A stretch of 64,000 nt of DNA from Chthoniobacterales bacterium (GCA_019747895.1 JAIEQF010000019.1:71363-135362); one strand, 5' to 3'. Shown: positions 28,236 through 32,178, numbered from the stretch's first letter. The notes: generated from the letters alone by a model not told the origin. A program made the numbers and translations.

Positions 28236-28240
28236 AAAAA

Positions 28241-28435
28241 GTTGAAGGGTTGAAACGTTGAGGGGTTGAAAAGACTTTTTCCCCTCAACTTTCTCTTTTC
28301 AATGCGAGCAGCTTTGTTTTTAAAGTAAATCAGTTCATAAAATAAAAAATGCACGAATGATTATTGGTCTGGATTTTTATTTTCTTCAACCCCTCAACCT
28401 TTCAACAGCTGCGAAGCAGCGCTCAACCTCTCAAC
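28241..28435. repeat. Word-arm hairpin, GTTGAGAG class, inserted between atpE and atpF
   Basis: gttgaagggttgaaacgttgaggggttgaaaag against cttcaacccctcaacctttcaac...gctcaacctctcaac. Also a local 9-bp stem gttgagggg/cccctcaac. Ends 9 nt before the atpF ATG. Confidence 0.9.
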
Positions 28436-28444
28436 TTTCTTCTC

Positions 28445-28954
28445 ATGCATATCCTTACTGAACTCTTTGAAAACTTTGGTGTCGACTGGCCAAAGTTTTT
28501 GGCTCAGACCATCCTTTTTCTGATCGTCTATTTGGTGTTGCGCCGTTTTGCTTTTGCTTCCGTAATTAATATGCTGGAAGAGCGTCGTCGTCGTATTGAA
28601 GAAGGACAACTGAATGCTGAGAAAATCAAGAAACAGCTTGCAGAAGCAGAGCTTCGCTACGAAGAGATCCTACGTAAGGCTCATGCTGACAGTAAAGCCC
28701 TCATTGAAGAGGCTCGCGTAGCCGCAGAGGCTTCCACAAACAAGGAACTTCAGCGTGCGATCAAAGATGCTGAACTCATTATCATTCATGCTAAAGAAGC
28801 TATTGCTATCGATCGTCAACGAATGATTGAAGAAGTAAAAGGCGATATGATCAGCTTGGTGGTGGCCACCACTGAAAAAGTTGCCGGCAAAGTTCTTAAT
28901 GCTGACGATCAACAGCGACTCAATAAAGAAGCAGCTGCAGCGCTTGCTTCTTAA
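28445..28954 (+). CDS. atpF: F0F1 ATP synthase subunit b
   Basis: ORF 28364.. trimmed to the ATG at 28445; the extension is translated repeat arm. One N-terminal TM helix followed by a long charged helix. Confidence 0.9.
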   Translation: MHILTELFENFGVDWPKFLAQTILFLIVYLVLRRFAFASVINMLEERRRRIEEGQLNAEKIKKQLAEAELRYEEILRKAHADSKALIEEARVAAEASTNKELQRAIKDAELIIIHAKEAIAIDRQRMIEEVKGDMISLVVATTEKVAGKVLNADDQQRLNKEAAAALAS

Positions 28955-28986
28955 TCCTAAATTTTTTTCCACTTTTAATTCTCCAC

Positions 28987-29370
28987 ATGAAAATTCCTCG
29001 CGAAGCCCAACGTCATGCACGTCGTCTCTTTGATGCGTCGTTTGTCGAAGGACGTCTTGATGCTAAGCGCAGCCTTGATGTGGCTGATGCTCTGGTTGCA
29101 ACAAGACCACGTCATGGATTTCAGATTTTGAAGGAATTTGTTCGCCTTGTTCGTTTAGAAATTCAAAAACACACCGCTCTTATTGAAAGTGCTGTTGCTT
29201 TAAGCGAAGCTTCTCAAACAGTCATTGCTGCTGCTTTAAAAGCACGTGATCCTCAAATGGAAGTAACAGCTGCAATTAACGCTTCTCTCATTGGTGGCAC
29301 TCGGATCCGCTTGGGGAGTGATGTTTGGGATGGAACGATCCTCAAACGCCTCGAACAATTAAAAAGCTAA
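28987..29370 (+). CDS. atpH: F0F1 ATP synthase subunit delta (short, 127 aa)
   Basis: Operon position and the OSCP-like C-terminus LIGGTRIRLGSDVWDGTILKRLEQLK. Confidence 0.8.
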   Translation: MKIPREAQRHARRLFDASFVEGRLDAKRSLDVADALVATRPRHGFQILKEFVRLVRLEIQKHTALIESAVALSEASQTVIAAALKARDPQMEVTAAINASLIGGTRIRLGSDVWDGTILKRLEQLKS

Positions 29371-29473
29371 CTACTAAAAACGAGCAACCATTTTTTTAAA
29401 CTTTTTTACTTCAACTTCAACCTTGTCCCCGCGTAGGTGGGGATCCACAATCTCAAACTCCTAAACTTTTAAA

Positions 29474-31009
29474 ATGAGCACTCTTCTACAAGACCTAGAA
29501 CAAAAAATCGGCGCCCTTCGCGATGCGACCGTTACTAAAAGCAATGTCGGCACCGTTCGCGAAATTGGCGATGGTGTTGCCCGCATCGAAGGCTTGAGCG
29601 GTGTCATGCTCAACGAAATGTTAAAATTTCCTGGTGATGTTTACGGTATCGCTTTGAATTTGGAAGAGACTGAAGTGGGTGCGATTATCCTTGGTGACTA
29701 CACTAAGATCAGTGAAGGGGATGAAGTCACAACGACTGGCCGCCTCCTCCAGGTTCCTGTTGGCAAGCAGCTTCTCGGTCGTGTTGTCGATGCACTCGGT
29801 CGTCCAATTGATGGAAAAGGAGAGATTGGCGCTACTGAATTTTACCCTGTTGAAAAAATTGCTCCTGGTATCATCAAACGTCAAGGTGTTACTCAACCAG
29901 TACAGACTGGTATCATGGCAATTGATGCGATGGTTCCCGTCGGACGTGGTCAACGCGAATTGATCATTGGAGATCGTGCAACAGGAAAGACAACGATTGC
30001 GATTGATACGATTATTAATCAAGCCCGCATCAATCGTGCTGGCGAAGAGAGTGGTGATCCTTCCTTCCGCCCGCTCTATTCTATCTACGTTGGTATCGGA
30101 CAACGTGTGGCCAACATCGCTCGTGTTGTCAGTGTGCTTGAAAAAAATGATGCTCTCAAATATACAATCATCATTGCTTCGACTGCTTCCAATGCTGCTG
30201 CAGATCAATACTTGTCTCCGTTTTCCGGAGCTGCGATGGGCGAATGGTTCATGGATCATGGAATGGATGCCTTGATCGTTTTTGATGATCTTTCTAAACA
30301 CGCCGTTGCTTATCGTCAAATTTCTCTCTTGCTCAAACGTCCATCTGGTCGTGAAGCTTATCCCGGAGATGTCTTCTACCTTCACAGCCGCTTGCTAGAG
30401 CGCTCTGCGCGTCTCAGTGAAAAAGCTGGTAACGGTTCGCTCACAGCGCTTCCGATTATTGAAACACAAGCTGGTGACGTCTCTGCTTATATTCCGACGA
30501 ATGTGATTTCGATTACCGACGGTCAGATTTATCTCGAGACCGATCTTTTCTATCAAGGAATTCGTCCTGCGATTTCGGTAGGTCTCTCTGTTTCTCGTGT
30601 CGGTTCCGCCGCACAGATCAAAGCGATGAAGCAAGTTGCTGGAAAACTCAAAGGTGATCTTGCTCAATTCCGTGAGCTCGCGGCGTTTGCTCAATTTGGA
30701 AGCGATCTTGATGCCCGCACCAAAGCTCAATTAGACCGTGGGCAACGTATTGTTGAGCTCTTTAAGCAGACACAATACCGTCCGCTTGCTGTAGAGCTTC
30801 AGTCAGCCATCCTCTGGGCGATGCAGAAAGGTTATTTTGATGCGACTCCAGCAGATAAAGTAAAAGTTTATCAAAACGAAATGGAAGAATTCCTCGCGAC
30901 ACGTAAAGCCCCTATCTTGGCTTCGATTCTTGCTAAAAAAGCTATTGATGCAGAAGTTGAGAAAGAGTTGGGTGCCGCACTCGATGAATTTAAAGCTTCT
31001 GTACGATAA
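29474..31009 (+). CDS. atpA: F0F1 ATP synthase subunit alpha
   Basis: GDRATGKT Walker A and overall alpha-subunit sequence. Confidence 0.97.
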
Positions 31010-31041
31010 TTCGTAGTAACTTCTTTTTTTAATTTCCTAGC

Positions 31042-31956
31042 ATGCCCAACACTCGCGACATTCGCCGACGCATTAAGTCGGTTAAGAACACCGCTCAAAT
31101 CACGAAAGCGATGGAGATGGTGGCTGCCTCGAAGATGCGACGCGCACAGCAGGCTGCTGTTGCGGGGCGTCCTTATTCGGAAGTACTCAATCACGTTCTT
31201 GTTTCGTTGCGAGATCGCGTTGATGCTACAGAACATCCTCTTTTAGAAGTCCGTGAGGTGAAGAAAACATTGGTGCTCCTCATCACTTCCGATAAAGGAC
31301 TTTGCGGTGCTCTCAACACCAACGTGCTGCGTGATGCTTCTCAGCTAGATGTGGATGCGACTGAGTTTGTCGTTATCGGTAAGAAAGGTGCTTCTTTCCT
31401 AGCCCGGACAGGACGCAAGATGATTGCTGACTTCATCCTTCCAGATCACCCTACTTTTTTACAAACGAAACCTATTTCCAAACTTTGTATGGAAAAGTTT
31501 CTTTCGGGGGAAGTCGATAAAGTCACCGTGCTCTATCCTCAGTTTGTGAACACACTGGTGCAAAAACCAGTTCATCTCGGATTGCTTCCTATCACTGCTG
31601 AAAAAGTTCAGGGAACGACCGCTATTCCACTCCCTCATCATTCAGAATCAGCGGCTGTACCTGCTGGACCAGCTTCTGCTGAAGCAGAACAAGCCATTAG
31701 CGAATATCTTTTTGAGCCTTCTTCCCAAGAAGTGCTTCATGCCATCTTGCCTTATTATTTTCATTTTGAAATTTTCCAAAAGATCCTTGATTCACGCGCC
31801 TCGGAACAGAGTGCTCGCATGGTTGCAATGAAAGCAGCTACCGACAACGCAAAGGGACTCGTGAAAGATCTGACCTTGGAATACAACAAAGCTCGTCAAG
31901 CTGGTATTACAACCGAGCTCCTCGAAATTTCAACAGCGCAGATGGCTTTAGGCTAA
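31042..31956 (+). CDS. atpG: F0F1 ATP synthase subunit gamma
   Basis: N-terminus RRIKSVKNTAQITKAMEMVAASKMRRAQ and C-terminus ARQAGITTELLEI. Confidence 0.95.
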   Translation: MPNTRDIRRRIKSVKNTAQITKAMEMVAASKMRRAQQAAVAGRPYSEVLNHVLVSLRDRVDATEHPLLEVREVKKTLVLLITSDKGLCGALNTNVLRDASQLDVDATEFVVIGKKGASFLARTGRKMIADFILPDHPTFLQTKPISKLCMEKFLSGEVDKVTVLYPQFVNTLVQKPVHLGLLPITAEKVQGTTAIPLPHHSESAAVPAGPASAEAEQAISEYLFEPSSQEVLHAILPYYFHFEIFQKILDSRASEQSARMVAMKAATDNAKGLVKDLTLEYNKARQAGITTELLEISTAQMALG

Positions 31957-32143
31957 GAAAATTAGCCACAAAGAACACAAAGAGATCAAAAAATAAAAGA
32001 CATTCTATTAGCTTCAATTAACTTATTTCCAAAACTTATACCTCGTAAAAATCTGCTTCACACCTAAGAGCTTATTGAAATCAATTTCATAGTTAAATTT
32101 TTTATCTCTTCTTTGATTTCTTTGTATTCTTTTTAGCCATTTC
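31957..32143. repeat. Word-arm hairpin, CACAAAGAA class, inserted between atpG and atpD
   Basis: gaaaattagccacaaagaacacaaagagatcaaaaaa against cttctttgatttctttgtattctttttagccatttc. About 80-85% complementary, with a loop of about 100 nt. Confidence 0.85.
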
Positions 32144-32178
32144 ATTTCTTCCTTCAATTTCAACTTTTAACTTCAACT

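Follow-up and report, generated by a model that had tools for sequence, protein, structure and literature searches.

A stem-loop position kept after atpE in Verrucomicrobiota and its repeat-built occupant in an AT-rich lineage

Here we analysed a 64,000-nt stretch of DNA from a Chthoniobacterales bacterium (GCA_019747895.1, JAIEQF010000019.1:71363-135362), which we call the window and whose positions are counted from its first letter. The window contains a complete F-type ATP synthase operon, atpBEFHAGDC (27053-34036 on the ORF map), all features of which are given on the + strand. Our subject is the two long spacers of this operon, one between atpE and atpF (E|F, 28236-28444) and one between atpG and atpD (G|D, 31957-32178). 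On balance, we favour the view that the E|F element is a repeat-built, local version of a stem-loop kept after atpE across the phylum, where it probably enriches the c-subunit mRNA, and that the G|D element is a recent, tolerated insertion.

The original prediction described hairpins inserted into spacers of 209 nt (E|F) and 222 nt (G|D) and suggested that they could terminate transcription, be processed or set subunit stoichiometry. Both lengths are exact on the gene map, and arm pairing and folding confirmed a long inverted repeat in each spacer. As described below, the two elements differ in how the rest of the prediction applies to them.

The structured slot after atpE

Orthologous loci of relatives (designated by L-numbers, together with the P0009 contig) were compared with the window. 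In 60 distinct E|F spacers from more distant Verrucomicrobiota (53-124 nt; AtpF 55-63% identical), a GC-rich stem-loop of 11-17 bp opens the spacer in 60/60 cases, and no stem has fewer than 10 pairs. At the median, the stem counts 15 pairs and starts 8.5 nt after the stop codon, with a minimum free energy (MFE) of -29.6 kcal/mol (z = -4.24). The hairpins lie 30-90 nt from atpF, their sequences are unrelated between lineages, and genomes of Akkermansia, Verrucomicrobiales and Opitutales also have them. Comparable stems are found in 0-11% of the atpH|atpA (H|A), G|D, atpF|atpH (F|H) and atpA|atpG (A|G) spacers of the distant loci, with z near 0. T is enriched after the stems (4.05 in 10 nt versus 2.35 expected), and a terminator-like tail is present in 26 of the 60 spacers. 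Beyond Verrucomicrobiota the junction varies: a terminator-like hairpin is conserved after atpE in Paenibacillus, and many beta-proteobacteria have short bare spacers.

We then examined the clade of the window, comprising 12 genomes including the window with an AtpF identity of at least ~71%. The E|F spacer is 137-224 nt long in 12/12 genomes. Whatever its type, its first 75-125 nt form a hairpin (-22 to -47 kcal/mol), the start of which is no more than ~10 nt from the stop codon. Based on the occupant, the spacers could be divided into two types. In type A (the window, L001, L089, L019, L091, L092 and L010), the 5′ word array and its adjoining degenerate complement come first, then an AT-rich stretch, and the 3′ word arrays lie beside the atpF start. 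In type B (L169, L004, L007, L172 and L011), a ~100-nt hairpin of an unrelated repeat family, with arms CTTAAAAATTCTACTG.../...CAGCGAATTTTAAAG, is followed by an AT-rich stretch and the 3′ words. The 3′ half of the spacer is homologous between the two types. On a neighbour-joining tree of AtpF and AtpA the types are interleaved and at least three switches are implied; thus, the occupant has been exchanged several times with the slot staying filled. The words of type A also vary by lineage, both arms together (GTTGA/TCAAC versus GTTTA/TAAAC).

A conserved stable structure after the cistron, as in a protective 3′ stem-loop, is therefore present in all 60 distant and all 12 clade spacers on unrelated sequences. 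Since the slot is always filled while the other junctions are usually bare, these results argue for selection for structure at this position, beyond tolerance. Moreover, the clade-wide long spacer and the phylum-wide stem-loop suggest that the E|F element occupies an ancestral structured slot and disrupts no tight junction, so the term "inserted" does not suit it. The original prediction had reasoned that the same spacers in all relatives, regardless of repeat content, would, together with uniform read-through and no RNA ends at the stems, reduce them to ordinary spacers. For E|F this is half the case: the long spacer is universal in the clade, and its repeat content is swapped between lineages. 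The idea that the element relates to c-subunit stoichiometry gains comparative support, as the slot is kept in structure and not in sequence and is specific to the junctions flanking atpE.

It could be argued that both elements are selfish or neutral repeats, similar to MITEs (miniature inverted-repeat transposable elements) or repetitive extragenic palindromic (REP) sequences, and that E|F is merely a permissive hot spot that is repeatedly re-occupied. The repeat families are indeed genome-wide, with ~16 long-range inverted repeats in the intergenic gaps of the 64-kb window and recurring arm classes; they turn over rapidly between genomes ~93-95% identical in DNA; nearly every atp junction is occupied in some relative; and the E|F occupant switches between families. 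However, the E|F slot is empty in 0/12 clade genomes, and the hairpin is present in 60/60 distant relatives that are without these repeats and whose other junctions are usually bare. We consider this reading unlikely.

The E|F spacer of L046, a gut verrucomicrobium isolate (SIG76), carries an independent word-arm hairpin with TGAATAA-type words, which suggests that long word-built stems recur in AT-rich lineages. In the literature we found nothing specific that describes a post-atpE hairpin or verrucomicrobial intergenic repeats.

Anatomy of the E|F element and a model for its action

In the window, atpE (27993-28235), an ORF whose orthologues in the compared loci match Pfam ATP-synt_C, lies between two structured spacers. 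The E|F element starts with a 5′ word array (28241-28272), GTTGAAGG GTTGAAAC GTTGAGGG GTTGAAAA, which has a period of 8 and belongs to a class also found at 24728-24776 and elsewhere among the repeat families of the window. A local degenerate complement (28281-28303), CCCCTCAACTTTCTCTTTTCAAT, forms with this array a local hairpin (28241-28303) that starts 6 nt past the atpE stop codon. The AT-rich centre (28304-28384) is conserved in the closest relatives only: the segment 28271-28384 contains 30% GC, and only L001 and L089 have it, at 97-98% identity. The distal 3′ word arrays (28385-28438), TTCAACCCCTCAACCTTTCAAC and CTCAACCTCTCAACTTT, flank a small GC hairpin (28407-28421) and are the pairing partners of the 5′ array; 6 nt separate their end from the atpF start codon.

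The E|F spacer folds with an MFE of -57.2 kcal/mol (z = -4.55; 0/200 shuffles as stable), and the minimum-energy fold has 32 long-range base pairs. One partner of the 5′ word array is 28385-28406, with 22 nt that are 95% complementary and 114 nt from arm to arm, and another is 28422-28438. The first 75 nt of the spacer fold to -27.5 kcal/mol, and the core hairpin (28257-28289) alone to -16.7 kcal/mol. In this core hairpin a stem of 9 bp, which can be extended to 22 pairs, closes a 15-nt loop, and the 3′ side and tail, UUUCUCUUUUC, are rich in U. A consensus fold of 7 relatives displays G-C/U-A exchanges in three words of the arms.

The anatomy, the conservation pattern, the covariation and the presence or absence across relatives are observed, and from them we infer effects on RNA level or translation as follows. 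During transcription, the 5′ word array would first pair with the adjoining degenerate complement to form a hairpin of about -27 kcal/mol 6 nt past the stop codon, which matches the position and approximate energy of the short GC-rich hairpins in GC-richer relatives. Most likely, this hairpin would act as a leaky intrinsic terminator, as a block to 3′-to-5′ exonucleases, or both. RNA segments covering atpB-atpE (or atpE) would then outlast or outnumber the downstream cistrons and help to supply the c-ring subunit in excess, and the post-atpE element probably raises c-subunit mRNA in this way. In read-through RNA, the distal 3′ arrays may displace the local complement to give a 32-bp long-range stem ending 6 nt before the atpF start, which may also reduce translation of the b subunit or serve as a substrate for RNase III. 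The occupant itself would be replaceable, given that two unrelated repeat families fill it in different lineages.

There is precedent for protective 3′ structures that shape differential decay within operons, such as the REP in malEFG and those in many E. coli operons (PMC5927463). In an archaeal ATP synthase operon, artificial terminators lowered both growth and the transcription of downstream genes (PMC10450193). Because of this latter effect, the essential nature of the downstream genes and the related hairpins at other junctions, strong termination at E|F is unlikely.

Several observations weigh against this model. A terminator consensus scan made no call in the E|F or G|D spacer; for the E|F hairpin the reason is its 15-nt loop. 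The equilibrium ensemble is dominated by the long-range fold, with a negligible probability of the local hairpin, so taking the local hairpin as the working unit assumes co-transcriptional folding. The strand asymmetry of G.U versus A.C in the E|F hairpins of 70 loci is not significant (p = 0.42), and hence a + strand, RNA-level role of the hairpin gains no independent support from it. The covariation of the arms rests on few independent lineages and could represent replacement by lineage-specific copies instead of selection in place. Finally, termination, processing and stabilisation cannot be told apart for an uncultured lineage.

One alternative is that the long-range stem is itself the key feature, masking the region upstream of the atpF start to lower b-subunit translation and maybe serving as an RNase III site that splits atpBE from atpFHAGDC. 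Its 32 pairs end 6 nt before the AUG, and its helices of 14 + 7 bp, stacked with one mismatch, are long enough for RNase III (at least ~20 bp of double-stranded RNA). The six other type A genomes have an equivalent architecture, and the Correia elements of Neisseria are RNase III substrates (PMC2649163). However, the type B genomes keep the 3′ words without a 5′ partner, so the long-range stem cannot be the conserved function. Likewise, the ancestral hairpins of 11-17 bp are shorter than the RNase III length and lie 30-90 nt from atpF, and the mean unpaired probability is still 0.46 in the 25 nt before the AUG. In our view, these points make a leading role of the long-range stem quite improbable.

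Alternatively, transcription might end fully at the hairpin and start anew from a promoter in the AT-rich centre, in which case atpFHAGDC, and likewise atpDC after G|D, would be separate transcription units. The AT-rich centres (26-30% GC in the E|F and G|D elements), the T enrichment after the ancestral hairpins and the ability of Correia-type elements to create promoters (PMC2649163) would be compatible with it. Nevertheless, a consensus scan found no promoter-like (sigma-70-like) + strand site in either spacer, and the count for the whole region is at chance (11 versus 9.8 +/- 3.5 expected). Promoters of atpF and atpD within the loops, which the original prediction had named as a finding that would speak against it, are thus not predicted. 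Furthermore, the centres are not conserved, distant relatives leave little room (30-50 nt) between hairpin and atpF, and the closest relatives express atpD without a G|D element. This arrangement is very unlikely.

The inverted repeats might also act at the DNA level, as cruciforms, as sites for nucleoid or recombination proteins, or as transposase ends, with their position in the operon being incidental. The distance between arms clusters at 100-126 nt across unrelated arm classes, and the E|F stems are without significant strand asymmetry, both in favour of this view. Against it, no transposase or partner protein was noticed in a non-exhaustive scan of the window proteins, the hairpins found after atpE across the phylum have the short GC stems and T-rich tails typical of RNA signals, and the neighbouring motif before atpE, described below, has an invariant U.G pair and 19% G.U pairs. 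We give this explanation hardly any weight.

Two further candidates were dropped. The element centres do not qualify as a conserved gene, small RNA or promoter, as BLAST against the compared loci finds homologues only in the closest relatives. The 3′ words do not qualify as signals complementary to the anti-Shine-Dalgarno sequence or rRNA, as several unrelated word classes stand at the same positions.

An RNA motif between atpB and atpE

The 88-nt spacer upstream of atpE (B|E) contains a hairpin motif (27914-27954) whose outer stem leads through a GGA internal loop to an inner stem that carries an invariant U.G pair. The motif also has a 1-nt bulge and is followed by a C/A-rich leader and then atpE. 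The motif is present in nearly all compared loci and was seen in the folds of more than 50 relatives. In an alignment of 55 sequences, the U.G pair occurs in 55/55 and the GGA internal loop is invariant, and 87.1% of the cells are paired as compared with ~44% when the partners are slid. Fourteen of the 18 pairs change on both sides, with 156 compensatory cells versus 57 +/- 6.7 in shuffles. G.U pairs make up 19% of the pairs, which, together with the invariant U.G pair, indicates that the motif is clearly read as RNA.

The alignment also served to build a covariance model, which matches 27907-27968 of the window at 62 bits, as a single copy. It recovers the held-out copies of Akkermansia, Verrucomicrobiales and Opitutales, always at the atpB|atpE position, and has no match in Chloroflexi, Proteobacteria, Paenibacillus or candidate phyla radiation loci. 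The motif has no match in Rfam. With Rfam models, only a tRNA reaches the gathering score in the whole window, and the best matches of a permissive scan of 27850-32250 (E = 3-5) are far below threshold.

Together with the post-atpE hairpin, the B|E motif brackets the c-subunit gene with two conserved RNA structures. It is therefore tempting to consider a wider reading, which we hold as a tentative possibility: a two-part RNA cassette flanks the c-subunit cistron in Verrucomicrobiota, and an undescribed genome-wide system of paired word arrays supplies its downstream part in the AT-rich clade. A protein or RNase may bind or cut at the B|E hairpin, which is conserved in sequence and, with the post-atpE hairpin conserved in structure only, may release and stabilise a monocistronic atpE mRNA. 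The word arrays, purine-rich after stops and pyrimidine-rich before starts and ~110 nt apart, would also supply many other gene boundaries and may be genome-wide insulating or processing modules and more than selfish repeats.

How one operon yields 8-15 c subunits per single a, gamma, delta or epsilon subunit is a classic problem, and in E. coli the excess of c subunit is mostly ascribed to translation. The phylum-wide structures before and after atpE point to a contribution at the RNA level, through attenuation, processing or differential decay, which could be tested in cultured members such as Akkermansia. In the AT-rich lineage, the required structure appears to be rebuilt repeatedly from interspersed repeats, a clear case of exaptation in which mobile repeats turn over at a site under selection. 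The G|D element looks instead like an ordinary recent insertion.

The G|D element, the remaining junctions and the repeat population

The G|D element (31960-32142) belongs to the CACAAAGAA class. Its arms (31960-31993 and 32109-32142) are 34 nt long, 79% complementary and 115 nt apart, and enclose a unique AT-rich centre of 115 nt. The G|D spacer folds to -26.2 kcal/mol (z = -2.08; 5/200 shuffles as stable), so the hairpin is real and much weaker than that of E|F. The arm sequence is common to 7 other window sites (family D2), and the centre has no homologue in any compared locus.

Among the compared relatives, the hairpin was found only in the window genome. The orthologous G|D spacer is empty in four relatives, namely L169 (AtpG 95% identical; 43 nt), L004 (92%; 43 nt), the P0009 contig (86%; 37 nt) and L172 (84%; 28 nt), and here the description as inserted is borne out. 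In L001 (93%), L170 (90%) and L007 (88%), the site holds an unrelated ORF of 132-194 aa (L001:8964-9446, L170:1670-2068 and L007:10990-11574) with a signal-peptide-like N-terminus, internal TTGTGDGA..NG..TVTKFTTVT repeats and no Pfam match. The insertion left intact a G-poor, 37-nt atpD leader (32142-32178), TCATTTCTTCCTTCAATTTCAACTTTTAACTTCAACT, with the sequence ...TTCAACTTTTAACTTCAACT before the ATG. This leader aligns with the 3′ ~30 nt of the 43-nt spacers in L169 and L004, indicating that the ~180-nt element was added upstream of a conserved atpD leader. The leader core, ...CAACTTTTAAC.TCAACT, is also present in L009 and L010, and the leader is conserved down to 75% AtpG identity. TCAAC/TAAAC word runs like those of the leader precede atpA, atpC and many other genes. 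A direct TTAGCCA of 7 nt is present at both ends of the element, and a clear target duplication is not visible.

Given the weak hairpin, the missing U tract and the lack of conservation, we find nothing that points to a function for this element. The site comparisons suggest a recent, strain-level MITE- or REP-like insertion that is probably neutral and tolerated rather than functional. The stoichiometry idea does not extend to it, as the element is not conserved.

The genes of the operon are atpB (27053-27904), atpE, atpF (28445-28954), atpH (28987-29370), atpA (29474-31009), atpG (31042-31956), atpD (32179-33597) and atpC (33626-34036). In addition to the B|E, E|F and G|D spacers, the junctions measure 32 nt (F|H), 103 nt (H|A), 32 nt (A|G) and 28 nt (atpD|atpC, D|C). 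The range of 29-103 nt originally given for the other junctions is thus 28-103 nt, off by 1 nt. The short GC hairpin announced for the H|A spacer, TCCCCGCGTAGGTGGGGA, was located at 29426-29443; it is found only in the window genome and L169, and the H|A spacers of L001, L004 and L007 (42-57 nt) are without it. No Shine-Dalgarno sequence precedes any atp gene of the window.

Repeat hairpins also occur at other atp junctions of relatives: L091 has one in B|E (4324-4563, 240 nt, ATAGAAG words) and one in F|H (5511-5784, 274 nt, GC-rich, -105 kcal/mol), and L007 has a CACAAAGAA hairpin in D|C (13061-13166, 106 nt). Since they are found at B|E, F|H and D|C, such repeat hairpins cannot be strong terminators. 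The H|A and A|G spacers are enlarged in some relatives. Upstream of the operon, L001 carries a 1.77-kb insertion (L001:2119-3885) with a 461-aa ORF without Pfam match between a LysM-domain gene and atpB, where the window has only 48 nt (26811-26858).

The host is an AT-rich, Chthoniobacterales-like freshwater verrucomicrobium whose intergenic regions are rich in inverted repeats. The window has a GC content of ~44%. An exact look-up found no record of its AtpG, and the best matches of AtpG are uncultured freshwater Verrucomicrobia with records naming Chthoniobacterales or "Xiphi". Many repeat arms consist of tandem words of 7-9 nt, for example CACAAAGAA, GTTGAGGG, AGGTTGC/AGGTGAC and ATAGAAGGG. 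In 176 kb of clade DNA there are 32 long-range inverted repeats, where shuffling yields 3; the GC-rich distant relatives have 6 in 115 kb. In the window and clade loci, the inter-arm distance peaks at 100-126 nt (19 of the 32 repeats), and the purine-rich array is the 5′ arm in all listed long-range inverted repeats. Because this clustering spans unrelated arm classes with non-alignable centres, it looks like a physical length constraint. Within the window, the CACAAAGAA terminus recurs at 8 sites and GTTGAGAG modules at 6, and single arms are also found alone. The recurrence of the arms and the abundance of repeats across the clade indicate that both atp elements belong to a genome-wide repeat population.

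The elements resemble MITEs in having terminal inverted repeats on a short non-coding element of less than ~500 bp (E|F arms of 22-33 nt, G|D arms of 34 nt, elements of 160-200 nt) and in being present or absent at orthologous sites, such as G|D and the site at window 40275, which is a 9-nt spacer in L007. A BLAST search of the window, only 64 kb of the genome, and of the compared loci found no second copy of the E|F and G|D centres. There is one centre match between genomes, in which the copy at window 52001 corresponds to an L001 element at the site orthologous to window 40275, and this suggests that the repeat family is mobile. In the two filled/empty site pairs compared, the search for a target-site duplication gave an ATT/AATT overlap at most, and no consistent duplication across copies was seen. 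No transposase or partner protein, REP-associated tyrosine transposases (RAYTs) included, was noticed in the window, where the protein scan was non-exhaustive. The arms are not the palindromic units of REPs or REPINs (REP doublets forming hairpins) and are instead tandem direct words with a period of 7-9 that are not self-complementary, while inverted doublets and singlets do occur. The window repeats have too few mismatches for the strand-asymmetry test.

Other copies of the type B family lie in the window at 21542-21687, 34135-34424 and from 55609 onward. The copy at 21542-21687 falls inside a crude ORF call (21151-21918), so either the ORF is spurious or split, or the element is intragenic. 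A composite repeat (34135-34424 and 55609-55967) has a 166-nt hairpin element with arms TATAGTCAAATTACTTAG... nested in a type B loop, and its two copies are 95% identical over 170 nt. Family D1 is a GC-rich repeat of 79 nt with copies 65-84% identical, located directly after the atpC stop (34056-34134) and after other genes (7693-7771, 17748-17826, 20892-20970 and 55689-55767). It has no Rfam match and may be an operon-end structure. The segment 55418-56847 (1430 nt) is without an ORF of at least 80 aa and is partly occupied by the composite repeat and D1 copies.

Comparison with known systems

In cyanobacteria, the ATPC RNA motif (Rfam RF01067) is a conserved RNA structure between the a- and c-subunit genes. 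It shares its operon position with the B|E motif and differs from it in phylum and fold, and the likeness concerns B|E and not E|F or G|D; its covariance model has no match in 27850-32250 even at E <= 5. For the post-atpE slot, a parallel in position is found in Paenibacillus (L052, L058, L060, L067 and L075), where a terminator-like stem-loop with a T run (GGCGGGGAAGGCC...CCGCGCCTTCTTTTT) directly follows the c-subunit gene and is conserved within the genus. It has a short GC stem of the classical kind, followed by a U tract, and unlike the E|F element it does not consist of repeats. Chloroplasts face a similar task: the ATP synthase stoichiometry is uneven, and RNA ends around the c-subunit cistron are protected at atpH/atpF (PMC6474325). 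The barrier there is a bound pentatricopeptide repeat (PPR) protein, whereas here it would be an RNA hairpin.

REP sequences, bacterial interspersed mosaic elements (BIMEs) and protective 3′ structures, as in malE-malF of E. coli (PMC5927463), also place a stable stem-loop just past a cistron that is needed in higher amount, originate from interspersed repeats and keep their structure but not their sequence. However, REPs are GC-rich palindromes of 20-40 nt linked to RAYT transposases, whereas the atp hairpins described here are AT-rich, 60-200 nt long, built of tandem 7-9 nt words and known from sequence alone. To our knowledge, no RAYT has been reported for this verrucomicrobial lineage. REPINs (PMC3116915) likewise consist of two inverted copies of a short repeat around a spacer that form a hairpin, and single arms also occur alone here; in our elements the arms are not palindromic, the spacer is ~110 nt and several unrelated arm classes share one geometry. 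Correia elements of Neisseria (PMC2649163) and prokaryotic MITEs (PMC10969869) are similar in size (~100-190 bp), in their inverted-repeat ends and in their abundance in intergenic regions. They are also transcribed together with adjacent genes, vary in presence from one close strain to the next and form hairpins that may be substrates of RNase III. Features of Correia elements are a conserved core, duplication of a TA target and an integration host factor (IHF) site, whereas the elements here share their arms only, have unique centres and allow no target duplication to be defined.

Together, a stem-loop after the c-subunit gene and interspersed repeats acting as intercistronic stabilisers are of kinds already known. 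Three aspects appear to be new, namely that the post-atpE slot is conserved throughout the phylum, that different repeat families have repeatedly refilled it in the AT-rich clade, and that there is a B|E motif.

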